Assembly (NCBI GenBank): GCA_963845205.1
Contig: CAWJRC010000004.1
Span: 105,040 to 169,039 of the forward strand
Length of the DNA: 64,000 bases
DNA from: an uncultured archaeon
GTDB lineage: Archaea; Nanobdellota; Nanobdellia; Pacearchaeales; GW2011-AR1
Direction: 5' to 3'
Position 1 is the stretch's first letter. The number at the start of each line of letters is the position of its first letter. The notes under the pieces were generated by a model, which was not told where the DNA came from, made no database searches, and saw nothing but the letters and a program-made list of their open reading frames with translations. Below are positions 4,224-64,000 of this stretch, one piece after another. A program made the translations under genes and the position numbers.

Positions 4224-6413
4224 ATGGCAGAAAAAGAAACACAATTTCAGAAGATACAAAGACTTAGCTCGAGCCAGAAAAATATCAGAAACATAGCGAC
4301 GAGCGCGCATATTCACCACGGAAAAACTGCTCTTACAGACAATCTTCTTGCTGCATCAGGATATATGGCTGCAAAGAATGCGGGGAATCTTGATGAAGGA
4401 ATGGCAACATGGCAGCATGCTGATGAGCAGGAACGATTGATGACAGTCGATTCTGCGAACGTTTCCATGGTTCACGATTTTCACGGAGAAGAATATTTGA
4501 TTAATTTAATTGATACTCCTGGGCACGTTGACTTTGGGGGGAATGTTACAAGAGCCATGAGAGCTATCGACGGAACAATTGTCCTTGTTTGCGCTGTCGA
4601 GGGAATAATGCCCCAAACAGAAACAGTCATTAAACAGGCATTGAGAGAAAGAGTAAAGCCCGTTTTATTCATCAATAAAGTTGACAGATTAATCAAAGAG
4701 ATGAAACTAACTCCTGAAGGAATGCAGCAGAGATTTGTAAAAATTATAAATGAATTTAATGATTTAGTAAGTAAAATTGCAGACCAGGATTTCAAGGAAA
4801 AATGGCTTGTTAACATCAATGATGGAAGCGTTGCTTTCGGAAGTGCCAAAGAGAACTGGGCGCTTTCTGTTCCTTTCATGATTAAAAAGAAAATTACATT
4901 CAAGGATATTTTCACTCTTGTTGAAATGAACGATACTGACAGAAAAGAATGGGTCTGGAAGAATGCTCCGCTTTATGAAGTTCTTCTGGATATGGCTGTA
5001 AAACATTTGCCAAATCCTCTTGAAGCACAACAATACAGAATTCCAAAAATATGGCACGGAGATCTTGACAGCGAATTCGGAAAAGATTTGCTTAGCTGCA
5101 ATCCCAAAGGAAAAATTGCTTTTGTGATAACAAGAATTGTAATAGATCCCCGTTCAGGAAAAGAAATTTCAGCGGGAAGACTTTTTTCAGGAACAATAAA
5201 AAACGGAATGGAAGTTCATCTTAATCTCGCGAATAAAGAACAAAAAGTCCAGCAGATATTCATTTACAATGGAATAAAACCGGAGCAGATTGAAGAAATC
5301 GGACCTGGAAATGTAATTGCAATTTCAGGAGTTACAGGAGAAGCAGGAGAGACAGTAACGCTTGAACCAGAAACTGCATTCGAAGAATTAAGACATATTT
5401 TTGAACCAGTCGTTACAAAATCGATTGAAGTAAAAAAAATGATGGATTTGCCGAAGCTGGTTGAAATATTAAAACAAGTTGCAAAAGAGGACCCTTCTGT
5501 AAAAGTAGAAATTAACGAACAGACAGGAGAAAGTTTGATTTCGGGAATGGGAGAACTTCATCTAGAAATAATCGAAAACAGAATCAAGACAGAAAAGGAA
5601 CTTGATGTAAAAACTTCTGCTCCTATTGTTGTTTACAGAGAAACAGTAAACAAAGAATCTCCTGAAATGGAAGGAAGAAGCCCAAACAAGCACAATAGTT
5701 TTTTCATTTCTGTCGAGCCGCTGGAAGATAATATTTATGCTGCGATAAAAAGCGGGGAAATTCCTGAAGGAAGAGTCAAGAAAAAAAGTCAGGAACTTGC
5801 AAATGTTCTGAACAAATTCAACTGGGATGGAGAATCAATAAGAAGCGTCAGGGATGTTTACAAGGGAAATATGTTTTTTGACAGGACAAAAGGAGAAGTT
5901 CACATCGGAGAAGTAATCGACATGATACTGGATGCATTTGAGATGGTTATGGATAAAGGCCCATTAGCCAGAGAGCCGTGCACAAAAATGAAACTTTCAT
6001 TAATGGATATCAAGCTTCACGAAGATGCGATCCACAGAGGCCCTGCCCAGGTTTATCCTGCTGTAAGAGAATCTATCACAGAAGCAATGAACAAAGCTGA
6101 TGCATGCCTCCTTGAGCCAGTACAGGTGCATCTGATTGAATTCCCCGACAAATTCTTAAGCACAATTACAAGACTAGTCGGAAGCAAAAGAGGACAGTTG
6201 CTCGAAGTAAAACAGGAAAATGGAGAGAGCGCAATAAAGGCGAAGATTCCTGTCGCTGAAATGATTGGATGGAGCAATGATTTGAGAAGCGCAACAGAAG
6301 GAAGAGGAGTTTCATCTCTTGCAGAACAGATGTTCGAAAAACTTCCGCAATCATTGACAAAAGATGTTATACAAAAAATAAGAAGCAGAAAAGGATTAGC
6401 TGAGAATCAGTAA
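4224..6413 (+). CDS. fusA: translation elongation factor 2 (aEF-2)
   Basis: AHIHHGKT, DTPGHVDF, diphthamide-site HEDAIHRGPAQ; 729 aa. Confidence 0.95.
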   Translation: MAEKETQFQKIQRLSSSQKNIRNIATSAHIHHGKTALTDNLLAASGYMAAKNAGNLDEGMATWQHADEQERLMTVDSANVSMVHDFHGEEYLINLIDTPGHVDFGGNVTRAMRAIDGTIVLVCAVEGIMPQTETVIKQALRERVKPVLFINKVDRLIKEMKLTPEGMQQRFVKIINEFNDLVSKIADQDFKEKWLVNINDGSVAFGSAKENWALSVPFMIKKKITFKDIFTLVEMNDTDRKEWVWKNAPLYEVLLDMAVKHLPNPLEAQQYRIPKIWHGDLDSEFGKDLLSCNPKGKIAFVITRIVIDPRSGKEISAGRLFSGTIKNGMEVHLNLANKEQKVQQIFIYNGIKPEQIEEIGPGNVIAISGVTGEAGETVTLEPETAFEELRHIFEPVVTKSIEVKKMMDLPKLVEILKQVAKEDPSVKVEINEQTGESLISGMGELHLEIIENRIKTEKELDVKTSAPIVVYRETVNKESPEMEGRSPNKHNSFFISVEPLEDNIYAAIKSGEIPEGRVKKKSQELANVLNKFNWDGESIRSVRDVYKGNMFFDRTKGEVHIGEVIDMILDAFEMVMDKGPLAREPCTKMKLSLMDIKLHEDAIHRGPAQVYPAVRESITEAMNKADACLLEPVQVHLIEFPDKFLSTITRLVGSKRGQLLEVKQENGESAIKAKIPVAEMIGWSNDLRSATEGRGVSSLAEQMFEKLPQSLTKDVIQKIRSRKGLAENQ

Positions 6414-8954: not shown

Positions 8955-9515
8955 ATGATACTAAGAAAAGAGATGACTAAGATTGAAATCGAAAAAGAAT
9001 TAAATCGTCAGGGAGATTACGTCCAGATCGATACTATAACAAGATTTCTCAAAGAAAACCCAGCAATGGACTTAAAAAAATTTCTTTATACAAAATTAAC
9101 AGAAATTTATGAAAGAAGAAACATGTTCATAGATGAAGCCGAGGTTTACAACAGGTTAATTGATATTGCTTTAACTCCTTCGGAAAAGGTTAATTGTTTG
9201 GTAAAGGCAACTGAATGCTATATAAAAGCAGGAGTTTTTGACAAAGCAGACCTGATGATGAGCAAAGTTACAGGACAGGTAAAAGAGCTTGAAAGAAGGA
9301 AAATAGTGAATTCAATCATTGAATTCTATAAAAAACAAGCGCTTGTTTATGAAAAGGAAAAAAGAAGGAACAGAGCAGTAAAAACTTATGAAAAAATTCT
9401 TTCAATGAATATTCTTGACTCAGAAAAAAAAGAAGTTAAACAAAGGCTAGTAAAATTATATCAGGAACTCGGAATGGTAGGGGAATATATGAAAATTAAG
9501 GGCGAATCTGAGTGA
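8955..9515 (+). CDS. hypothetical protein
   Basis: 186-aa ORF, helical, no recognisable motif. Confidence 0.4.
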   Translation: MILRKEMTKIEIEKELNRQGDYVQIDTITRFLKENPAMDLKKFLYTKLTEIYERRNMFIDEAEVYNRLIDIALTPSEKVNCLVKATECYIKAGVFDKADLMMSKVTGQVKELERRKIVNSIIEFYKKQALVYEKEKRRNRAVKTYEKILSMNILDSEKKEVKQRLVKLYQELGMVGEYMKIKGESE

Positions 9516-9614: not shown

Positions 9615-9782
9615 ATGACAAAGATACAAATAGACTTAGACGAGGAAGAAGACAAGATTGTAGAGATATACAAATTAGTAAACAATCTAAAGACAAAGGA
9701 GCAGGCAATTAAAATAATGGTAAAATATTTTAAGGCAGAAGTTAAACCTAAGAATCTAAAAGATAAGGAGTATTTTAAATAA
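9615..9782 (+). CDS. small putative ribbon-helix-helix-like DNA-binding protein (55 aa)
   Basis: MTKIQIDLDEEEDKIVEIYKLVNNLKTKEQAIKIMVKYF: β-strand then two helices, RHH/antitoxin-like; stop overlaps start of next gene (taaaATG). Confidence 0.4.
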   Translation: MTKIQIDLDEEEDKIVEIYKLVNNLKTKEQAIKIMVKYFKAEVKPKNLKDKEYFK

Positions 9783-9783
9783 A

Positions 9784-10530
9784 ATGATAGATATAACGGG
9801 AAAACAAGATGCAATTGCTATAAAAGAAGAATATCAAAAAGCATTGAATTATACCCATGAAGAAGTTAAGAAAAAAGTAGAATGGCTTTATGGAATGAAT
9901 CATAAATTAAAAGATAATCTTGCATTAGCCCAGAAATATAAAAAAGACCTTGTTGCAGATGAAGAAGCCAAGGATAAGGAATATGCTAATTTGAATAACC
10001 TCTTGATAAAAGAAACAAATTTTGAGAAAGAAATGTTAAAAACTTCTCAAAAAGGAAAGAAATCTTCCATAACTAAAATTAAACCAAAATTCAAAGATGT
10101 AGATGAAGTTAGATTTAATGCGATGCAAGATTATCTTGACAAATATCCTGAATATGCTTCTAAATCAAGTTTTAAAAAAATATTAGATAAAATAAGTGAA
10201 GTTGAAAAAGGAATTAAAGATACAAAGAAAAATTATAATCGTTCTGTTTCAGAAGTTTTGAGAGAAATCTCTTATTGGTCAAGGAATTATATGGAAGCAG
10301 AGAATCTTGTCAAAAAATTTAAAGAACAGATTAAAGAAGCAAAAGAGAAATTAAGTAAAATGAGATATTTACGAAGTATTGCATATAAGTTAGCAAGTGA
10401 AAAAGAAAAAATGAAAGTAAATATCCATACTCTTTATTATCGAATAGATGAAATGGAAGATACAATTAGAAAATTAAATGAAGAATATGAAAAAGCAAGA
10501 AGACAAGATTTAGAAGAGATGGAATATTAA
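9784..10530 (+). CDS. K/E-rich coiled-coil protein, function unknown
   Basis: 248 aa, heptad-rich; followed immediately by 58-nt repeat copy A. Confidence 0.45.
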   Translation: MIDITGKQDAIAIKEEYQKALNYTHEEVKKKVEWLYGMNHKLKDNLALAQKYKKDLVADEEAKDKEYANLNNLLIKETNFEKEMLKTSQKGKKSSITKIKPKFKDVDEVRFNAMQDYLDKYPEYASKSSFKKILDKISEVEKGIKDTKKNYNRSVSEVLREISYWSRNYMEAENLVKKFKEQIKEAKEKLSKMRYLRSIAYKLASEKEKMKVNIHTLYYRIDEMEDTIRKLNEEYEKARRQDLEEMEY

Positions 10531-10534
10531 TAAA

Positions 10535-10592
10535 AAAAGCCACACCTCTTAACACCATTATCCAAGCCACGAATACTTAACACTCTCAATCT
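10535..10592 (+). repeat. ~58-nt repeat copy A (two tandem AAGCCAC-N-CTTAACAC sub-units) directly 3' of stop codon
   Basis: ~90% identical to the reverse complement of 61124..61181. Confidence 0.7.
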
Positions 10593-10775
10593 GAGTAAGA
10601 TTTAAAAACCTTCTTTAGTTTTGATATTTGAGAAATGTCTATTAGATTATAAATTATATTCATATTCATATCACATTTCCTGTTCATTTTTTAAGGAAAG
10701 TAGAGTAGTTCGTAACTTTAGATATTTCTTGGAATCATAGATTTCAGACAAAATTAAATTTAAGGAAAGAAAAAA

Positions 10776-55608: not shown

Positions 55609-56196
55609 TCATTTTTCCAAAGGAAGAAATCCTTTAACTTCCTCTTTTGATAACTGCCTGTAGGTATCACATTCGTGTTTTAAATGCCAAGAAAATTTAG
55701 TTTCAAACCCAATGTTTTCAACTTTCTTTCCGACTTCTTTTACAACTTTGATTGCTGGAACAAAATCCCCATCTGAAGAGACTAATATTGCAGTATCATA
55801 AGCATTATTATAAGCCAACTTAACCATATCAACTGCCAAGTTTATGTCATCTTCTTTTACCATATAACAAATCTTACCATTTATGGTCTCTTTTTGCATT
55901 CTGCATAAAATTAGATTAAAGCAAGGTATTTTTCTCAATTTATCAAAAAATTTCTGCTGGTTGGCATAAATTTCCTGTCCAGTTTTTTTCGCCTTTTTTG
56001 GGGTAATATAATTTTTATCCAAGGGAGCTGTGTAATAATAGGTTCTAACAAGCATTCTATTTCCTACAAGAGTTTTTGTAAATTTATCAAAATCAAATTC
56101 AGATAAACAGTCAGGATCATCATTAATCATCTTTTTAACGATATGATAATGATTGCTGCCGTCAATGAATACTATAACTTTTTCTTTATCGTGCAT
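55609..56196 (-). CDS. NYN/LabA-like domain protein
   Basis: VIVFIDGSNHYH..., AILVSSDGDFVPAIKVVKEVGKKV. Confidence 0.65.
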   Translation of the reverse strand: MHDKEKVIVFIDGSNHYHIVKKMINDDPDCLSEFDFDKFTKTLVGNRMLVRTYYYTAPLDKNYITPKKAKKTGQEIYANQQKFFDKLRKIPCFNLILCRMQKETINGKICYMVKEDDINLAVDMVKLAYNNAYDTAILVSSDGDFVPAIKVVKEVGKKVENIGFETKFSWHLKHECDTYRQLSKEEVKGFLPLEK

Positions 56197-56555
56197 AGAG
56201 TTAGATAAAGAAATAACTTAAAAATATATCGTAAAATATGAACCCAGCTTTGCCGAAGCAATGCTGGGGAGTATATAATAATAATAATAATAGGGGATTT
56301 AAAAATGTTTATTTTATAGCTACGGGCAGTATTCCCTACTGCGCTAATTGTTATTTTAATGATAGCACTATTGATGATACTTATTACAACAGTATTGATA
56401 ATTGTTATTACAATTAACAATTCAGGTAATGAGTCAGTAATTAGAAATATAAAACTTACTGCAACTTAACAAAAAAGGAGAAAATTACGACAATTCCTTA
56501 TTCTTAACATTTTATAGTTCAAAAAGTTAATAAAGTCTTTCTGGTTTTTTAATAA

Positions 56556-57431
56556 ATGAAAAATAAGAGGGGGCAATTTTTCATTATTGCTGCAATAATC
56601 ATAATAACAGTGATAATAAGCATTGTAACTGTCTCGAATTACAGCCAGCCGAAACAGACAACAAAACTTTATGATCTTGGACAGGAACTGGGAATTGAAA
56701 GCCAGCAGGTTCTTGATTACGGAACATACAACGAGCTAAACGATACTGAGATGCAATCACTAATGGAAAATTTCATCCAGAATTATGTAAGCTACATGGG
56801 AGGAAAAAGGAATATTTATTTCGTGTTCGGAAACGCGCAGGTCATTGACGTTGTCGGTTATCAAGAGTTATTAAACGAAAGCGTCTGCATAACATTAAAT
56901 CCTGTAACTCATGTTTGCGGGGACGGAACTGCAATAGCAGGAGAGGGATGCGATGTAAACACAAGCATATTCGGGGATATAGGATGCGCAGGCGACTGCC
57001 AGCTTGAACAGCCCGGATGCAATATTTCTGCTGCTTCAAATGAAACAGTAAATGAATCAACAGTAAATCCCGGAGAATACTGCGACGGAAATAATATGAG
57101 CGGGCTCAACTGCACTTCATTCGGATTTGACGAACCTGCAAGCGAACCTCAGGGACAGACAGCACTTCAATGCACTGCACAATGCGGATTTGACACTTCC
57201 GGATGCGTAATTCCACAGCCGCAGAATCAGCCAGAATGCCAGAACCTCACTGTCCTCGGACAGCCGCAATCACCTCAGCAATTTCCAGAAGAAAACGGTG
57301 CAATTTCAAAAGTAGCGATAAACCTTGCAGGAAACCAGTATGAATTCGCGCTCAAGCCCGGAGAAAATTTCTATTTTGTAATCTGGGAAACAGAAAACGG
57401 AGAAAAAAATGTTATTACAAGCCCGCAATAA
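56556..57431 (+). CDS. secreted Cys-rich protein with class III (type IV pilin-like) signal peptide
   Basis: MKNKRGQFFIIAAIIIITVIISIV; 20+ Cys in C-terminal half. Confidence 0.5.
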   Translation: MKNKRGQFFIIAAIIIITVIISIVTVSNYSQPKQTTKLYDLGQELGIESQQVLDYGTYNELNDTEMQSLMENFIQNYVSYMGGKRNIYFVFGNAQVIDVVGYQELLNESVCITLNPVTHVCGDGTAIAGEGCDVNTSIFGDIGCAGDCQLEQPGCNISAASNETVNESTVNPGEYCDGNNMSGLNCTSFGFDEPASEPQGQTALQCTAQCGFDTSGCVIPQPQNQPECQNLTVLGQPQSPQQFPEENGAISKVAINLAGNQYEFALKPGENFYFVIWETENGEKNVITSPQ

Positions 57432-57951
57432 AAAAGGACTCAGCGAAGTCATTGGATACATTCTGCTAGTCGCGGTTTCGATAACAATAAGTGTGCTCGT
57501 ATACCAATGGCTTGTAACATATGTCCCATCGCAGTCGCTTCAGTGCGATGACGGAACTTCTTTTTTTGTAAAAGATTTTTCCTATGACTGCACAAACCAG
57601 ATATTAAACATAACCCTGGAAAATAACGGAAAGTTCAGCATTGAAGGATATTTTATTCATGCTTCAAACAACAGCGACACCAGCCAGCTTGCAACAATAG
57701 ATTTATCACAGAAAGTTCTTAATTACAGCGGAGCATATCCGTACGGAAATTCTGTAATATTCTCGCAGCTTGTAAACAATGAACTGGCTCCTGACGCAAC
57801 AGGAATAAAACTCCATGTCTTCAATGTATCGGGATACGGAAACCTTAGCAAGATAGAGCTTATACCGACGAGAATACAGGATGTTCAGGGAAAAACAGTT
57901 TTAGTAACATGCACTGATTCAGAGGTTACAGAACTGCTTACATGCAACTGA
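57409..57951 (+). CDS. archaeal type IV pilin-like protein (pilin_N class III signal)
   Basis: ARNKKGLSEVIGYILLVAVSITISVLVY. Confidence 0.7.
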   Translation: MLLQARNKKGLSEVIGYILLVAVSITISVLVYQWLVTYVPSQSLQCDDGTSFFVKDFSYDCTNQILNITLENNGKFSIEGYFIHASNNSDTSQLATIDLSQKVLNYSGAYPYGNSVIFSQLVNNELAPDATGIKLHVFNVSGYGNLSKIELIPTRIQDVQGKTVLVTCTDSEVTELLTCN

Positions 57952-57989
57952 ACAGAAAGGATTTAAAATAGAAGGATATTAATATTAAA

Positions 57990-58475
57990 ATGGCAAGAAG
58001 GAGTGTGATAAAAAAGAAAGGGCTTTCCCCTGTAATAACAACAGTTCTTTTGATTGCTCTGGTCGTTGTAATAGTTTCTATAATTTTCTTATGGTTTAGG
58101 GGAATGGTGCAGGAAGGAGTCACAAAATTCGGGAAGAACATAAATCTGGTATGCGATGATGTAAAGTTCGACGCAACATATGCGGCAGGAACCTTAAGTG
58201 TAGTCAATACAGGAAACATTCCGATATTCAGAATCGAGATAAGAATTTCAAACAATGGAAATTTCGTGACAGAAGACATTATGAACACAAGTGCAGGAAG
58301 CAGCTGGCCTTCCGGAGGGCTGGGGCAGGGAGCAACTTTCTCAGGAAACATACAGAGTGATATCGGAAGCGCAAATGACATTCTTATAATACCCGAACTT
58401 ATAGGAACATCACCCAGCGGAAAAGAAACTTTAATATGCGGAGGACAGTATGGAAAGGATATCACGATCTCGTAA
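57990..58475 (+). CDS. archaeal type IV pilin-like protein
   Basis: KKKGLSPVITTVLLIALVVVIVSIIFLWF. Confidence 0.7.
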   Translation: MARRSVIKKKGLSPVITTVLLIALVVVIVSIIFLWFRGMVQEGVTKFGKNINLVCDDVKFDATYAAGTLSVVNTGNIPIFRIEIRISNNGNFVTEDIMNTSAGSSWPSGGLGQGATFSGNIQSDIGSANDILIIPELIGTSPSGKETLICGGQYGKDITIS

Positions 58476-58977
58476 AAAGGGGCTGTCTGAAGTTGTAACA
58501 ACAGTAATTCTCATCGCAATAAGCCTCGCTGCAATCGTAATTGTCTGGGCTTTTGTGAATACATTCATAACCAAACAGGTAAGCAGCAGCGAATCATGCT
58601 ACGGAAATTACAACCAGGTAAAAATCAACGGGCAGTACACCTGCCTTAATACTTTATCAGGGGGCCAGTACAGCTTTAACTTTTCCATGACAATCGGGGA
58701 CATCAGCGTCGATAAAGTTCTTGTCTCAGTATCAGCAGGAGGAGCAGTCAACACATACACGATCACAAACACACCGCAGAACCTTTCGGGGATAACAATG
58801 GAAAACGGAAGCAGCGAAGTTGTTCTTCCAGGAAAAAATTCAGGATTGACTTATTATTTAACAGGATTTTCAAGCCCTGTTGATTCTGTACAAATCGCAC
58901 CGGTCATCGGAGGAAACCTCTGCTCGGTTTCTGATACACTTGCTGAAATCTATGACTGCTCAATCAGCGCCGAGTAA
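58450..58977 (+). CDS. archaeal type IV pilin-like protein
   Basis: SRKKGLSEVVTTVILIAISLAAIVIVWAFV. Confidence 0.7.
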   Translation: MERISRSRKKGLSEVVTTVILIAISLAAIVIVWAFVNTFITKQVSSSESCYGNYNQVKINGQYTCLNTLSGGQYSFNFSMTIGDISVDKVLVSVSAGGAVNTYTITNTPQNLSGITMENGSSEVVLPGKNSGLTYYLTGFSSPVDSVQIAPVIGGNLCSVSDTLAEIYDCSISAE

Positions 58978-59016
58978 AAGAATTAATTATTTAAATTAAA
59001 TTTTACTTGTACATTC

Positions 59017-59538
59017 ATGAATAAAAGAGGGCAGGTCTGGATTGAAACAGTAATTTATACTCTAATCGCTTTTGTAATGATAGGGCTTGTCCTTTCTTTC
59101 GCCCAGCCGAAAATACAGCAGCTGCAGGACCAGGCAGTAGTGCAGCAGTCAATCAACTTACTGACCCAGATTGACTCAACAATAAACACGCTAGGCGGCG
59201 AAGGGAATTTAAGAATAGTCGAGCTGGGGATCAAGCAGGGGGAACTTAATATCGACGGCGTAAATGACCTTATCAGTTTTGACATGAACACCCAGAGCGC
59301 GTACAGCGAGCCGGGGAAAAACATCAGCAACGGAGATATACTGATCGACACAGAAAAATACAACAGCGAATACAAAGTGACCCTGACGATAAATTACCAG
59401 CAGGATTATGACATAGAATTCAACGGAGCAAATGCTCTGCAGACCCTCACTGCCGCTTCGACGCCCTATGAACTGACAATAGCAAATGCAGGAGAGGACG
59501 CTGAAAACAGAACAATACTAAACATGTCTCTTAGCTAA
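59017..59538 (+). CDS. class III signal peptide (pilin-like) protein
   Basis: MNKRGQVWIETVIYTLIAFVMIGLVLSFA. Confidence 0.6.
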   Translation: MNKRGQVWIETVIYTLIAFVMIGLVLSFAQPKIQQLQDQAVVQQSINLLTQIDSTINTLGGEGNLRIVELGIKQGELNIDGVNDLISFDMNTQSAYSEPGKNISNGDILIDTEKYNSEYKVTLTINYQQDYDIEFNGANALQTLTAASTPYELTIANAGEDAENRTILNMSLS

Positions 59539-59546
59539 ATAAAAAA

Positions 59547-61097
59547 ATGGATAATATTGAAGATTACGAAAAAGTAAAAATAGACTTTCATCCGAAGACG
59601 CCTTTGCTTGAAAGAATAGAAGACAAATCGCAGATTGATATCAGATACTGCCTTATCGCGCCGTTCGCATTTGTCCACATTTACTGGGATGCGAAAATCT
59701 ACGAGCTCGTTTATGAAATCGAAGAGCCGATACTTACAGAGCAGGAAAAATCCTCAAGAGACCAACTCACTTCAGCGATAAGAGACCTTATAAATTTTGA
59801 AGGAGTCGTGGAAAAAAATGAGGACACGCTTTTGGAATACATTGACAAGAGGCTTAAAATTCTCGCGGTAGAATTCGGAATGGACATACCTTATGAATCT
59901 TACAAAAAAATATATTATTATCTCTGCAGGGATTTCATCGGGATAAACGAGATAGAGCCCATAATAAGAGATTATTTTGTCGAGGATATAGAATGCAACG
60001 GGATCAACAGCCCAGTCTACATAATACACCGACTTTACAGAAGCATAAAGACGAATGTCAATTTCACGAGCATGGACAGCATCGAGAGTTTTGTAGAAAA
60101 ACTCGCGCAGAGATGCGGGAAGCATATATCCTACGCAAATCCGATTCTCGACGGAAGCCTGCCGGACGGAAGCAGAGTCAATGCTACATATACAACAGAT
60201 ATAACCAGCAAGGGGCCGACATTCACAATAAGAAAGTTCACAAAAACTCCATGGACTCCTATACAACTTCTTTCATTCAAAACACTCAGCCCCGAGATGC
60301 TCGCATATCTCTGGATCCTTATACAGTACAAGATGAATATTTTAGTGACAGGGGGAACAGCTTCGGGAAAAACGACGCTGCTTAATGCCATCGCTTTTTT
60401 CATACCTCCGGAAGCAAGAGTTGTAAGCATTGAGGATACGAGAGAACTAAATCTGCCTAGGGAAAACTGGCTTCCTAGCGTCACGAGAGAATCGACAGAA
60501 AACAGAAGAGAAAATGAAATAACATTATTCACTCTTTTGAGAAGTTCTTTCAGACAGAATCCAGATTATGTAATTGTCGGTGAAGTAAGAGGAAGAGAGG
60601 CGTCTGTCCTTTTCCAGGGAATGGCTTCGGGGCACTCATCGCTGAGCACAATGCACGCTGATTCGGTCGAGACACTGATAAAAAGACTTGAAACTCCGCC
60701 GATAGAACTTTCTCCGACGCTATTGAATGTTCTTGACTGCGTCTGCATCATGACGCACGCGATAGTAGGAAACCAGGAGACAAGAAAATTAAGGGAGATA
60801 GTCGAGATAGTAAATGTAAATCTCGACGGAACCGCAATAATAAACACTCCCTTCACATGGAGTCCCGCAGACGACAGATTTTATTTCAAGGGCGGCGAAA
60901 GAGTTTTTGAAAAAATTGTTAGAAGATACGGGATAAGAATGGAAGAGCTTGAAGCTGAATTCAGAAAAAGATCACAGATAATATATGAAATGTCAAAAAG
61001 GGGAATTTCAAAATTTGAAGAGGTTCAGGAATTAGTAAACCAGTATTACAAAAGGCCAAACGAAGTACTCAAGCAGTTCGGGATCGAACAAATTTAA
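59547..61097 (+). CDS. type IV pilus/archaellum-type secretion ATPase (FlaI/PilB/TadA family)
   Basis: Walker A TGGTASGKTTLLNA, Asp box, GEVRGREA, His box. Confidence 0.85.
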   Translation: MDNIEDYEKVKIDFHPKTPLLERIEDKSQIDIRYCLIAPFAFVHIYWDAKIYELVYEIEEPILTEQEKSSRDQLTSAIRDLINFEGVVEKNEDTLLEYIDKRLKILAVEFGMDIPYESYKKIYYYLCRDFIGINEIEPIIRDYFVEDIECNGINSPVYIIHRLYRSIKTNVNFTSMDSIESFVEKLAQRCGKHISYANPILDGSLPDGSRVNATYTTDITSKGPTFTIRKFTKTPWTPIQLLSFKTLSPEMLAYLWILIQYKMNILVTGGTASGKTTLLNAIAFFIPPEARVVSIEDTRELNLPRENWLPSVTRESTENRRENEITLFTLLRSSFRQNPDYVIVGEVRGREASVLFQGMASGHSSLSTMHADSVETLIKRLETPPIELSPTLLNVLDCVCIMTHAIVGNQETRKLREIVEIVNVNLDGTAIINTPFTWSPADDRFYFKGGERVFEKIVRRYGIRMEELEAEFRKRSQIIYEMSKRGISKFEEVQELVNQYYKRPNEVLKQFGIEQI

Positions 61098-61123
61098 TTT
61101 TCATATTCTAAAATTTTATTCAC

Positions 61124-61181
61124 ATGTGAGAGTGTTAAGTATTCGTGGCTTGAATGATGCTGTTAAGTAGCGTGGCTTTTT
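61124..61181 (-). repeat. ~58-nt repeat copy B (inverted relative to copy A), directly 3' of stop of 61185..62267
   Basis: reverse complement aaaaagccacgctacttaacagcatcattcaagccacgaatacttaacactctca matches 10535..10592 with ~6 mismatches. Confidence 0.7.
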
Positions 61182-61184
61182 AAC

Positions 61185-62267
61185 TTACTTTCCAGATTTG
61201 ATACGATTATCGTGTTTACATAGCATCTGACAATTTTCAGCAGTAGTTTTCCCACCCTTACTCCACGGGTCTATATGGTCTCCTTCCATTTCTTCTATTT
61301 CAAAATGCTTCTTACATTTTGGACAAATGCCTTTTTGTCTTTGGTATGCTTCTCTTTTTTGGTTAGATGTAAACTCACGAAGATTAAGGTATTTTTCATC
61401 TCTTGTTAAAATATAGGGAAAAATACCTGACTTCTTTTCAACTTCATCATCCTGCATTAATTTTGCTATTTCTTTGTCTATTGCTTTTGAGTTAAACTCT
61501 TTATCTTTAAATTTATTGTATAAAGTCCCAAAGTCTACTCCTTTCATTTCTTTATAGTAAGTGGAAAAAATTGCTTTTATCCAACTTATAACACTTTGAA
61601 AATATAACCATAATTCATTTGCATTAGGTTTATCCTGATTTTTAGCCATATATCCCTCTATCTTTCCATTACTAATCCAGCTAATCGCAGTTTCTAAATA
61701 ATCTTGGCGAATTGGAACTCCTGTTAGATAATCCTTTGCCATGTTATATGCTGGGCAACCTGTTTTACTAAAATGCCTTTTTGCGTCAGTTAGCCAAGTT
61801 CCTGTATAAATAGCATTTCTTAATTCTTGGTCGGTTAATTTTACTCCTGCAATATTTATTATTTTAAACCAATCCAACTTTTCTTTATCTTTTCCTTCAC
61901 AGAAATAAATCATCAATTTGTAATTTAGAATTTTCTCTTTTTCGTCATTTGTAAGATTATGAAAATATTTGAAATCTAATGCAAACTTTCCATCAACATA
62001 TTCACAAAAACTTATTGTCCTTTGCTGTCCATCCATTACTTCAAAAGTCCCATCTTCATTTTTAACCCAATACATCACATTTAAAGGAAAACTTTTGTTT
62101 ATTGTTTCAATTACAGCATCTCGCTGTTTATCTTTATAGATAAATTCTCTTTGATATTTTGGACGGATGTTTAATTTTCCTTTATACCCAATAACTCCTT
62201 CTTCTTCATCATTTTTGTATCCTTCTACGACATCTTTAATTGGTATTTGTTTAAGCTCTATTTTCAT
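61185..62267 (-). CDS. DUF262 (ParB/GmrS-like, DGQQR) + C-terminal HNH nuclease protein
   Basis: VMDGQQRTISF; C-terminal CPKC...DHIDPWSKGG...N...LC..CN HNH motif. Confidence 0.75.
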   Translation of the reverse strand: MKIELKQIPIKDVVEGYKNDEEEGVIGYKGKLNIRPKYQREFIYKDKQRDAVIETINKSFPLNVMYWVKNEDGTFEVMDGQQRTISFCEYVDGKFALDFKYFHNLTNDEKEKILNYKLMIYFCEGKDKEKLDWFKIINIAGVKLTDQELRNAIYTGTWLTDAKRHFSKTGCPAYNMAKDYLTGVPIRQDYLETAISWISNGKIEGYMAKNQDKPNANELWLYFQSVISWIKAIFSTYYKEMKGVDFGTLYNKFKDKEFNSKAIDKEIAKLMQDDEVEKKSGIFPYILTRDEKYLNLREFTSNQKREAYQRQKGICPKCKKHFEIEEMEGDHIDPWSKGGKTTAENCQMLCKHDNRIKSGK

Positions 62268-62291
62268 AGAATAATATCCAAAAAGAATTAT

Positions 62292-63257
62292 TTAAACATT
62301 CTTATTCTTTATTAGAATACGGACATATTTCTCTTTATCTTCTCCTTCAATAATTCCCCTATGCCTATGTTCTGGGTCTTTCCTTAGAGATTCAACTTCT
62401 GGAGATTTATCTCCACTATGGGTCTGCCCAATTATCTCAAATTGTTCTGGGTTATATTTATCTAAAAAAGTTAATGGAACTCCCATTACTCCTTTATAAT
62501 CTATTGGAATATCACTTACTTTATCAACATTTATAGCATTATAATTTTTATATTTAGGATAATCTTTTGGATTATATTTTTTGTAAAGAATTAAATTTTC
62601 GTGTCTTTTCTTATTGTCCAAATTGGTTAACCATACAATTGTCCCCATACTAAAGAATTTAGTCCCATTTTCTATTTTCTTTCTTGATTCCGTGGTTATA
62701 TCATAGTGTTCTGGAACTTTAAACCATTTTGTCCCACCATTATCAATTCCTAACCAAATTTTATTTTTTTTGATAAATTCAAAAGTATCTTTATTAGTGA
62801 GAGCATTTTGGTTTCCAATAATTAAAAACTTTTTATTGTATTTCATTAATTGAGCGATATATTCTCTAAATAAAGAGAAGGGCGGATTCGTAACAACAAT
62901 ATCAGATTTTTTTAATATTTCTATACATTCAGGGCTTCTAAAATCTCCATTTTGTTTCAAGGGAGTTTTTATTGTATTTCCATTAGTCTTTTCTAATTTA
63001 TAAGATGGTTTTTTGGTTTCAAAGTGTGTTGCTATTAATTTTTTTAATCCAAGAAATTTAAAATTTAAAGCAAAGTATTTCCAAAAGTTACTTTCTTCTG
63101 GGTCATCGCAATTAAGAAAAATAATTTTATTTTTGAAATGTTCTTTATAATGTCCTAACTCTTTTTCAATATCTGTAAGATTGGTATAAAAATCATCATT
63201 CTTAGCTACATTTGCCTTATGTAAACTTTTATTTAGGGTTTTCTTTTCCATTTCCAT
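62292..63257 (-). CDS. putative N6-adenine DNA methyltransferase (DxFYT...NPPF motifs, EcoRI-methylase-like)
   Basis: NDDFYTNLTD, IVVTNPPFSLFREY; overlaps upstream ORF by 29 nt. Confidence 0.55.
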   Translation of the reverse strand: MEMEKKTLNKSLHKANVAKNDDFYTNLTDIEKELGHYKEHFKNKIIFLNCDDPEESNFWKYFALNFKFLGLKKLIATHFETKKPSYKLEKTNGNTIKTPLKQNGDFRSPECIEILKKSDIVVTNPPFSLFREYIAQLMKYNKKFLIIGNQNALTNKDTFEFIKKNKIWLGIDNGGTKWFKVPEHYDITTESRKKIENGTKFFSMGTIVWLTNLDNKKRHENLILYKKYNPKDYPKYKNYNAINVDKVSDIPIDYKGVMGVPLTFLDKYNPEQFEIIGQTHSGDKSPEVESLRKDPEHRHRGIIEGEDKEKYVRILIKNKNV

Positions 63258-64000
63258 TTTTATTATTCATTTTTATGTCTGCCAAGACAGATAATTTACC
63301 TTTCTTTTCCAAATAACTTTTTAAATATTCCAAAAATTCTTTTGAATTTGCAAAATAATTAAGATATGCTTTTTTTAATTCTTCTACAGATTTTGCACCA
63401 ACAAGAACAACATCTTTATCTGGATTTCCCCCTCTCAATTTTTCTGCTTCAAGATAATGCTCTGATGCAAGAGATTCTGCTCCTTCGGGATAACCTCTAA
63501 TACTTAATTTTGCATTAGTCTCTTCCGATATATCTAATTCAAGTAAAAAGAAATCCAATTTTTTAAGTTCTGGTTCTATTATTCTTAACATTTCTGACCA
63601 ATTTTTCATTTTTGAGAATATTTTTAATTTATCTACTTTTTCTTTAATTGCTCTATATAGTTCATCGTCATCGGTTGGTGTTCCTTCTACTTCTTTTTGA
63701 TTTTCCATTTTTGCAAATGCTGAACTGACTAATTTAAAAAACTCTTTCCATTCTTCTTCACCTTCATTAGATTTAATTGCCTGTTTTGTAAATAAATCAA
63801 CTATTTCTATTGCAGTAGCCCATGCATGCTGTATCTTGCTTCTAATCTGAATTTCAATAAGTAAGCCGTCATATGTTTTTATCTTATCACTTTTATATCT
63901 ATAGATTAGGTGTATACTTCTATATCCATCTCCTTTAGGATTTTTTATATAATCCTTTTCCCTTATCCTCTTATGTTTTAATCCACGACTTTTCTTATAA
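63229..64000 (-). CDS. RelA/SpoT-homologue synthetase-domain protein (small-alarmone-synthetase/toxSAS-like) with ~200-aa C-terminal extension; 5'-partial (runs off window)
   Basis: Frame open beyond ORF-track Met to window end: ...DYIKNPKGDGYRSIHLIYRYK...GLLIEIQIRSKIQHAWATAIE matches RSH motifs DYI.PK..GY.S.H and EIQIRT...WAE. Confidence 0.65.
   Translation of the reverse strand, partial: YKKSRGLKHKRIREKDYIKNPKGDGYRSIHLIYRYKSDKIKTYDGLLIEIQIRSKIQHAWATAIEIVDLFTKQAIKSNEGEEEWKEFFKLVSSAFAKMENQKEVEGTPTDDDELYRAIKEKVDKLKIFSKMKNWSEMLRIIEPELKKLDFFLLELDISEETNAKLSIRGYPEGAESLASEHYLEAEKLRGGNPDKDVVLVGAKSVEELKKAYLNYFANSKEFLEYLKSYLEKKGKLSVLADIKMNNKNGNGKENPK

Follow-up and report, generated by a model that had tools for sequence, protein, structure and literature searches.

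A CapRel-type fused toxin-antitoxin gene beside a restriction-modification-type gene pair at the probable cargo end of an IS6-like transposon in an archaeon

CapRel-type proteins are tRNA-targeting toxins that have been discussed so far for bacteria and their phages. The anticodon nuclease PrrC is embedded in the EcoprrI type I restriction-modification (RM) locus and held inactive by the RM enzyme, and Tn7-like transposons carry defence genes as cargo. Characterised CapRel proteins are phage-triggered defence proteins and need no partner protein (PMC9712102). Toxin-antitoxin (TA) modules occur inside Tn3-family transposons (PMC7157771), and in archaea, RelA/SpoT homologue (RSH) proteins are considered rare (PMC3153485). 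Here we analyse a stretch of 64,000 nucleotides from an uncultured archaeon (contig CAWJRC010000004.1 of assembly GCA_963845205.1), referred to as the window, at whose end an RSH protein, an adenine-specific DNA methyltransferase and a nuclease with DUF262 and HNH domains are encoded one after the other. The locus is probably the cargo end of a 4.6-kb IS6-like transposon, on which two independent defence modules of known kinds are united in one operon.

The three open reading frames (ORFs) had been described in an original prediction made from the letters of the window. All three were present on the minus strand with the 29-nt overlap (63229..63257) and the 24-nt gap (62268..62291) reported there, the motifs named for the RSH, methyltransferase and nuclease ORFs were all located, and the domain assignments were upheld by Pfam profile search: RelA_SpoT (PF04607, 1.4e-10) in the RSH protein, EcoRI_methylase (PF13651, 2e-123, 412 bits) in the methyltransferase, and GmrSD_N/DUF262 (5.7e-19) and HNH (PF01844, 3.8e-13) in the nuclease. 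The RSH gene was extended upstream, and its missing 117 residues were recovered from L001, an identical public contig of 3.5 kb which overlaps the window exactly and adds 2.1 kb of upstream DNA; L-numbers (L001-L187) denote the related loci and contigs that were compared with the window. The gene probably starts at window-equivalent position 64350 (L001 2233). MAWTKP, ~25 nt downstream of a TATTTAAA box, is the likely translation start and gives a protein of 373 amino acids. The portion inside the window, which had been taken for the N-terminal part, is its C-terminal two thirds (residues 118-373 of 373).

Judged by its sequence, the RSH protein is a CapRel-type fused toxin-antitoxin and an end-to-end homologue of CapRel(SJ46). 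A profile of 22 homologues matched the CapRel(SJ46) structures (PDB 7ZTB/9ERV) with an E-value of 2.6e-62, residues 13-370 of 373 being aligned; RelQ/RelP-type synthetases came next, at only 1e-18 and with the catalytic core alone. BLASTP against the CapRel(SJ46) protein gave 31% identity (E 6e-45), and among phage proteins the best match to the RSH protein was CapRel(SJ46) itself, encoded as a RelA/SpoT protein by Salmonella phage SJ46. An AlphaFold (AF2) model of the RSH protein was obtained with a predicted local distance difference test score (pLDDT) of 82.8 and a predicted template modelling score (pTM) of 0.81. When this model was searched with Foldseek, 9ERV/7ZTB ranked first (E ~1e-21, template modelling (TM) score 0.6-0.67, 361-363 columns) and small alarmone synthetase (SAS) enzymes ranked behind CapRel, at 1e-8. 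In the profile search, the ~190 extra C-terminal residues were homologous to the CapRel antitoxin domain, and the fold predicted for the C-terminal part is a three-stranded sheet with a helix between the strands (E267-273, E281-287, H292-306, E312-318). The original prediction had guessed that the C-terminal extension might be an antitoxin or sensor domain of the CapRel type; profile search, BLASTP and Foldseek all agree with this guess.

Among the residues functional in CapRel(SJ46) according to Zhang et al. (PMC9712102), R79, R116 and Y155, i.e., the ATP/adenine arginines and the G-loop tyrosine, correspond to R71, R102 and Y143 of the window protein, which are invariant in the 22 homologues; the positions of R71 and R102 fall just beyond the window edge, in L001. 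V338, L339, A351, Y352 and Y355 are all kept, as V315, L316, A328, Y329 and Y332, and conservative changes at the interface are found at A77 (V69) and A341 (G318). Across 109 homologues, mean column entropy was 0.80 bits in the toxSYNTH core and 1.25 bits in the region of the pseudo-zinc-finger domain (pseudo-ZFD), a moderate contrast; the catalytic core is the most conserved part of the protein and the sensor domain is more variable. Furthermore, the PADLOC match of the RSH protein was PDC-S33, a single-gene candidate (3e-75 with the fragment as query, 1.3e-121 at full length). PDC-S33 was also the only PADLOC match of CapRel(SJ46), as it was of the window protein (290 and 404 bits, respectively); therefore, the PDC-S33 candidate family is the CapRel family. 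A literature search for PDC-S33 found nothing specific.

The window protein thus resembles CapRel(SJ46) (PDB 7ZTB, 9ERV; PMC9712102) in being encoded by a single ORF of the same length class (353-373 aa), in the order of toxSYNTH, anchor helices, pseudo-ZFD and C-terminal helix, in having kept the arginines of the ATP site, the G-loop tyrosine, the YxxY motif and the residues of the interface, in a catalytic core more conserved than the sensor domain, and in its carriage on mobile DNA. It differs in that it is ~30% identical, belongs to a DPANN-type archaeon, lies on an IS6-like transposon whereas the SJ46 copy lies on a prophage, and has an extra disordered tail of 20 amino acids. By homology with CapRel, the protein is predicted to pyrophosphorylate the 3'-CCA ends of tRNA and to be released by a viral protein. 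The N-terminal toxSYNTH domain would move pyrophosphate from ATP onto the 3'-CCA ends of tRNA, and translation would stop. Its own C-terminal pseudo-ZFD would normally keep it off, with the YxxY motif (Y329-L-N-Y332) plugging the ATP/adenine site formed by R71 and R102. A virus-encoded protein bound by the C-terminal domain would then open the enzyme, and the infection would be aborted.

A match to the Pfam family RelA_SpoT and a catalytic core resembling RelQ/RelP would also be expected of a housekeeping small alarmone synthetase that makes (p)ppGpp for a stringent-type response, with the RM neighbours being irrelevant. However, the NCBIfam YjbM model NF053588 scored 39 bits against a cut-off of 320, the full-length similarity is to CapRel and not to SAS enzymes, and the architecture is not that of a catalytic domain only. 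In addition, the RSH gene is low in GC and transposon-borne, its distribution over DPANN archaea, Methanoperedens, Candidate Phyla Radiation (CPR) bacteria and plasmids is patchy, and no hydrolase partner was seen among its neighbours. A housekeeping SAS of the RelQ/RelP/YjbM type was rejected, and we give this explanation almost no credence. By family scores and full-length similarity to CapRel, the upstream ORF is an RSH nucleotidyltransferase, as originally predicted, of a kind other than a housekeeping alarmone synthetase.

RSH relatives were found in 492 species-representative genomes. The best 80 genome matches are 69 archaeal and 11 bacterial ones, the latter mostly CPR; the archaeal matches comprise 24 Woesearchaeota, 12 Nanoarchaeota, 6 Micrarchaeota, other DPANN archaea and 8 Methanoperedens/Methanosarcinales. 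An exhaustive search at E <= 1e-30 yielded 1,456 clusters at 50% identity, nearly all of them ~345-370 aa long and matched end to end, and the gene is also carried by bacterial plasmids. Within the literature library that was searched, no paper linking CapRel or toxSAS with DPANN archaea was found. Examination of 80 genome loci for a conserved neighbour of the RSH gene revealed none: the neighbours vary in size, strand and family, and the commonest neighbour family was present in only 7 of the 80 loci. The methylase/nuclease pair stood beside the RSH gene in 2 of the ~139 loci with enough flanking sequence in the genome and metagenome scans, and at least 13 close relatives (73-87% identity) with sequenced downstream DNA are all without the pair. 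As far as these loci tell, the RSH gene is normally a stand-alone, single-gene system without a separate cognate antitoxin gene.

The methylase and the nuclease, for their part, are by the same kind of comparison an autonomous, separate and widespread RM-type two-gene module, because the pair is conserved on viral contigs and plasmids without the RSH gene and because PADLOC makes type II calls for both proteins. PADLOC identified the methylase as MTase_II (PDLC03297, 5.5e-115) and the nuclease, over its full length, as REase_II (PDLC03418, 4.1e-137). The original prediction had considered that the pair might simply be a known RM type, and in this softened form that is what was found. In 37 of 40 viral-contig (IMG/VR) loci, the methylase gene is co-oriented with the nuclease gene and lies directly upstream of it, the three exceptions being contig ends or a truncated gene, and an RSH gene was found beside the nuclease in none of the 40. 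On bacterial plasmids the pair bears the annotation 'DUF262 domain-containing protein | adenine-specific methyltransferase EcoRI family protein' with 50-62% identity; the hosts are Firmicutes, Actinobacteria, Proteobacteria and Bacteroidetes, including Macrococcoides, Aeromonas, Variovorax and Gordonia. The nuclease family is very large, with at least 8000 proteins at E <= 0.001, and the matches listed, which come from DPANN archaea apart from one Parcubacteria (CPR) entry, show 75-99% identity. H331 and N345/N354 of the nuclease are invariant in 20 homologues.

With type II RM systems as defined in PADLOC, the pair shares an adjacent, co-oriented methylase and nuclease that occur together across archaea, bacteria, plasmids and viral contigs, the NPPF adenine-methylase motif and the HNH catalytic motif; it differs in the N-terminal DUF262 NTPase-like domain of the nuclease, which is usually more conserved than the methylase. 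The nuclease had been assigned to the GmrSD/type IV kind. It does resemble GmrSD, BrxU and SspE (DUF262 + DUF1524) in an N-terminal DUF262 domain with DGQQR followed by a His-Me-type nuclease domain. In contrast to these, it has 360 amino acids, a zinc-ribbon HNH (PF01844) instead of DUF1524, and always a methylase at its side. A GmrSD-type or type IV nuclease with an orphan methylase was therefore rejected as the main reading, since a DUF1524 match is absent, the methylase is always attached and a methylase-free context was not found. The attached methylase argues for cutting that is blocked by modification and not dependent on it. In such a scheme, the EcoRI-family methylase would mark host adenines and the DUF262-HNH nuclease would cut DNA without the methyl mark. 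Literature searches for a named REBASE enzyme with DUF262+HNH and for an EcoRI-family methylase partner found nothing specific.

Further copies of the RSH-methylase-nuclease cassette were found by exact-protein look-ups (L123, L127) and by the genome scan (L010). The cassette thereby has four genomic contexts within a Woesearchaeota-type lineage, namely the window, L010, L123 (with the near-identical L124-126) and L127. L127 has a transposase as in the window, and the L123 cassette adjoins an IS5-like transposase and the rpl1-rpl10-rpl12 operon. The block of transposase, RSH, methylase and nuclease genes is colinear with L010, L123 and L127 at 75-82% nucleotide identity, and similarity ends at the nuclease stop codon. 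Identities of the cassette proteins are 80-88% (RSH), 73-89% (methylase) and 78-84% (nuclease); being alike for all three, they speak for one fusion, after which the genes were inherited together. In the sister cassettes, the RSH stop codon and the methylase ATG are 0-1 nt apart. The overlap in the window is derived and results from the insertion of 36 nt (63257-63292), which abolished the ancestral stop codon of the RSH gene and adds the lineage-specific disordered 20-aa tail to the RSH protein (63232-63291). This insertion contains a small inverted repeat (TGTCT TGGC AGACA) as well as two copies of an AAAAATG(G/A)A motif. Of the possible methylase starts, the second ATG (63251) is probably orthologous to the start used in the sister cassettes. 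Because of the close gene spacing, co-transcription of the three genes is likely.

A novel RSH + methylase + DUF262/HNH system had been suggested originally. Such an integrated system would use the RSH toxin as a guard or second line coupled to RM, triggered for example upon viral inhibition of restriction, on the model of PrrC/EcoprrI. Here as there, a latent tRNA-directed toxin and an RM system lie together in one operon. Moreover, the four cassette copies, ~20% diverged, keep a spacing of 0-1 nt (in the window, the 29-nt overlap) and of 21-24 nt, and a second, rearranged junction is present in the CPR bacterium L029, in the order methylase-nuclease-RSH with gaps of 1 and 38 nt and 42-52% identity to the archaeal copies. 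The L029 arrangement stems either from an old rearrangement or from a junction formed independently. However, some 137 of the 139 informative RSH loci are without the pair and the viral-contig RM loci are without the RSH gene. The toxin here has its own inhibitory domain and the RM association is rare in the RSH family, both of which set it apart from PrrC. It retains its complete own set for autoinhibition and sensing (YxxY, interface residues, pseudo-ZFD), and the CapRel paradigm needs no partner (PMC9712102). In addition, minimal transposons exist with the RSH gene alone, and unrelated defence genes commonly cluster on mobile elements. Hence an integrated system is improbable. An obligate three-gene system was rejected on the two counts given above for RSH-centred and nuclease-centred loci. 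What stands of the proposed co-localisation is one small lineage plus one rearranged bacterial case; otherwise the genes occur separately.

The vehicle of the two modules, an element containing the transposase, RSH, methylase and nuclease genes, has 4,592 bp and extends from L001 864 to window position 61128. GC content is 0.29 in the cargo as compared to 0.35 in the rest of the window, and 0.28 in the last 2 kb of the window as compared to ~0.35 elsewhere. A 410-aa DDE transposase (Pfam DDE_Tnp_IS240, 4.2e-10) is encoded upstream of the RSH gene in divergent orientation. The left terminal inverted repeat (TIR) is located at L001 864-~935; both TIRs are ~55 nt long and imperfect, with the outermost 10 nt identical and two sub-repeats in each, and perfect copies of the 9-bp repeat ACATGTGAA directly abut them. 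When the element and one repeat copy were removed in silico, the stop codon of an interrupted 265-aa gene was restored; the reconstructed empty site reads ...GGAATATACATGTGAATAAAATTTTAG..., and the restored gene would lie tail-to-tail with the pilus ATPase gene. The accessory setting suggested originally is thus upheld, as the genes lie in horizontally acquired DNA adjoining a pilus locus.

At least eight independent loci have a transposase homologue (26-77% identity) upstream of their RSH gene, divergently oriented in all but L064. Minimal elements consist of the transposase and RSH genes, i.e., one of 2,416 bp with a 41-nt TIR and a 9-bp duplication (L008/L133) and another of 2,596 bp with a perfect 24-nt TIR and an 8-bp duplication (L055/L186/L187). 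The L130 and L004 elements, likewise with the RSH gene as their sole cargo, are also flanked by inverted repeats; a search for target duplications of the L127, L130 and L004 elements found none. In L006, a TIR copy 89% identical to the right TIR of the window directly follows the RSH gene. In the simplest history, a CapRel-carrying IS6-like transposon would have received the RM pair in the space between the RSH stop codon and its right end. With the pair inserted between the CapRel-like stop codon and the right inverted repeat in this lineage, the three genes would probably share the CapRel gene's own promoter and therefore also move together; statements on promoters are based on reading conserved TATA-like boxes, the host being archaeal.

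The 120 nt upstream of the RSH gene contain two units of the form GCATGC-N10-13-GCATGC (L001 2118-2199, window-equivalent ~64384-64465). The region is also present in L002-L013, L123, L127, L128, L130 and L133. A TATTTAAA-like box comes some 15-20 nt after the upstream unit, and the downstream unit is followed by such a box after AAAGA. Each of the 19 loci in the close clade (>=70% identity) has two or more GCATGC hexamers; the average is 4.1, as compared to 0.015 expected from the rest of the loci, and among 130 more distant loci, none had the palindromes. The hexamers are invariant while the spacers vary, and in L006 a whole unit is exactly duplicated. The palindromes look like a putative operator for a dimeric regulator.

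These palindromes, shared by all close-clade loci in the intergenic region between transposase and RSH genes, are consistent with a CapRel-like gene that mainly serves the transposon as a stabilising or regulatory TA module, like the TA pairs that form an integral part of Tn3-family transposition modules, and is not primarily antiviral. The repeated association with IS6-like transposases and several complete elements of 2.4-2.6 kb with RSH as the sole cargo point in the same direction. Like Tn3-family TA modules and the cargo of Tn7-like transposons, the TA or defence gene here lies inside inverted repeats, divergent from the adjoining transposase and co-mobile with it; unlike them, it has an IS6-like transposase, a single fused TA polypeptide and an archaeal host, and the elements measure only 2.4-4.9 kb. 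TA modules inside transposons provide a precedent (PMC7157771). However, most members of the RSH family have no adjoining transposase of this type, differential decay of two proteins is impossible for a single-polypeptide TA, and the characterised CapRel proteins act in phage-triggered defence (PMC9712102). A mainly transposon-serving role is highly improbable, and it would not be mutually exclusive with an antiviral one. A small chance, somewhat above that of a purely transposon-serving gene, is left for CapRel as an integral part of a DPANN IS6-like transposon family, with a palindromic control region shared with the transposase gene, that in one lineage became wired to RM as a second line or guard.

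The reading of two independent known-kind modules on an IS6-like transposon is based on homology at the domain and full-length level, conserved motifs, the predicted fold, the independence of the modules, the colinear cassettes, the TIRs and the target duplication. We infer tRNA pyrophosphorylation, viral triggering, methylation-sensitive cleavage and co-transcription from homology only. Several observations weigh against it. Identity to characterised CapRel is only ~30%, and for that reason the substrate (tRNA or nucleotide) and the trigger are extrapolated. The best NCBIfam match of the transposase, NF033587 (IS6), reached 103 bits and lies below the cut-off of 125. In nearly all viral-contig loci (L082-L121) the nuclease is more conserved than the methylase, with identities to the window proteins of, for example, 74 vs 54%, 66 vs 48% and 60 vs 41%, which is the reverse of what is usual in type II systems; in the Woesearchaeota cassette clade, the two are about equally conserved. 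Palindrome avoidance was analysed in the window, 42 module-bearing and 78 module-free loci and revealed no module-specific depletion, only a general avoidance of GATC and CTAG being visible. The AlphaFold model of the nuclease (pLDDT 43.8; 20 sequences of 75-86% identity) was too poor to use. Finally, the adjacency in L029 and the persistence of the cassette through ~20% protein divergence leave room for some functional synergy.

Additional observations concern the surroundings of these genes. GATC is clearly depleted: its ratio of observed to expected occurrences was 0.64 in the window (z -6.3), and related archaeal loci totalling 1.1 Mb (L002-L081) gave 0.62 (z -29). This suggests that GATC-directed restriction is widespread in these organisms and has no connection with the RM pair. 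In L127, an extra ORF of 111 amino acids (4629-4964) separates the nuclease gene from the right inverted repeat and is a possible cargo gene; it had no match in Pfam or NCBIfam. The RSH gene or the cassette adjoins the ribosomal protein L1-L10-L12 operon in several DPANN genomes in varied orientations (L123 11432-13240; upstream of the RSH gene in L025, L026 and L053), and in L123 a phage-integrase gene is located just beyond. Insertions may recur in the vicinity of this operon.

A second copy of the right TIR was found on the plus strand of the window at 10534-10587. It is 89% identical over 54 nt, with an exact match in the last 24 nt, and 100 shuffles gave no match as good. It is located just after a two-gene cassette consisting of a ribbon-helix-helix-like ORF of ~56 amino acids (ending at 9782) and an ORF of 248 amino acids (9784-10530). 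The 9-bp direct repeat AATCTGAGT flanks this cassette at 9505-9513 and 10588-10596, 1,074 bp apart. No transposase and no clear left repeat are present, and this element may be a non-autonomous relative of the transposon with different cargo. At the insertion site of the transposon, a T2SSE-family ATPase gene (59547-61097) and several pilin-like ORFs with class-III signals form an archaeal type IV pilus locus; a gene for an NYN-domain protein lies at 55609-56196, and the pilus/NYN region as a whole (55609-61097) adjoins the insertion site. For the interrupted 265-aa gene, which lies beyond the window, a weak match to the thrombospondin type 1 repeat was obtained.

Table 1. Coordinates of the cargo genes, their motifs and the right end of the element in the window
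Feature	Position	Strand	Remarks
Right copy of 9-bp target-site duplication	61119..61127		ACATGTGAA; left copy at L001 855-863
Right terminal inverted repeat	61128..61184		two sub-repeats (AAGCCACG..ACTTAACA), terminus ..AACACTCTC
DUF262+HNH nuclease	61185-62267	minus	360 aa; nuclease half of RM-type module
Nuclease, HNH region	61197-61325		
Nuclease, DGQQR motif	62019-62033		ParB/Srx-like NTPase domain (DUF262)
EcoRI-family N6-adenine DNA methyltransferase	62292-63257	minus	321 aa
Methyltransferase, NPPF motif	62877-62888		
Methyltransferase, DDFYT motif	63183-63197		
CapRel-type fused toxSAS (RSH)	63229->64000	minus	256 in-window codons; ORF open at window edge
RSH, YxxY motif	63355-63366		YLNY, residues 329-332
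RSH, EIQIRS motif	63838-63855		
RSH, G-loop DGYRSIH	63910-63930		includes Tyr143
RSH, predicted pseudo-ZFD region			about residues 255-320

Standard defence annotation with PADLOC already covers both modules; hence the locus is no new three-part system, and both modules are of known kinds in an unusual host and vehicle. If the reading in which the transposon family has adopted the gene and one lineage has wired it to RM were true, the locus would represent the first archaeal CapRel and a PrrC-like layered system on an insertion sequence. DPANN archaea, Methanoperedens and CPR bacteria commonly encode CapRel-type proteins. Their genes travel there as the only cargo of small IS6-like transposons, which would be a simple way for abortive-infection genes to spread between ultra-small genomes, and one lineage displays the assembly of two defence modules into a single mobile operon.

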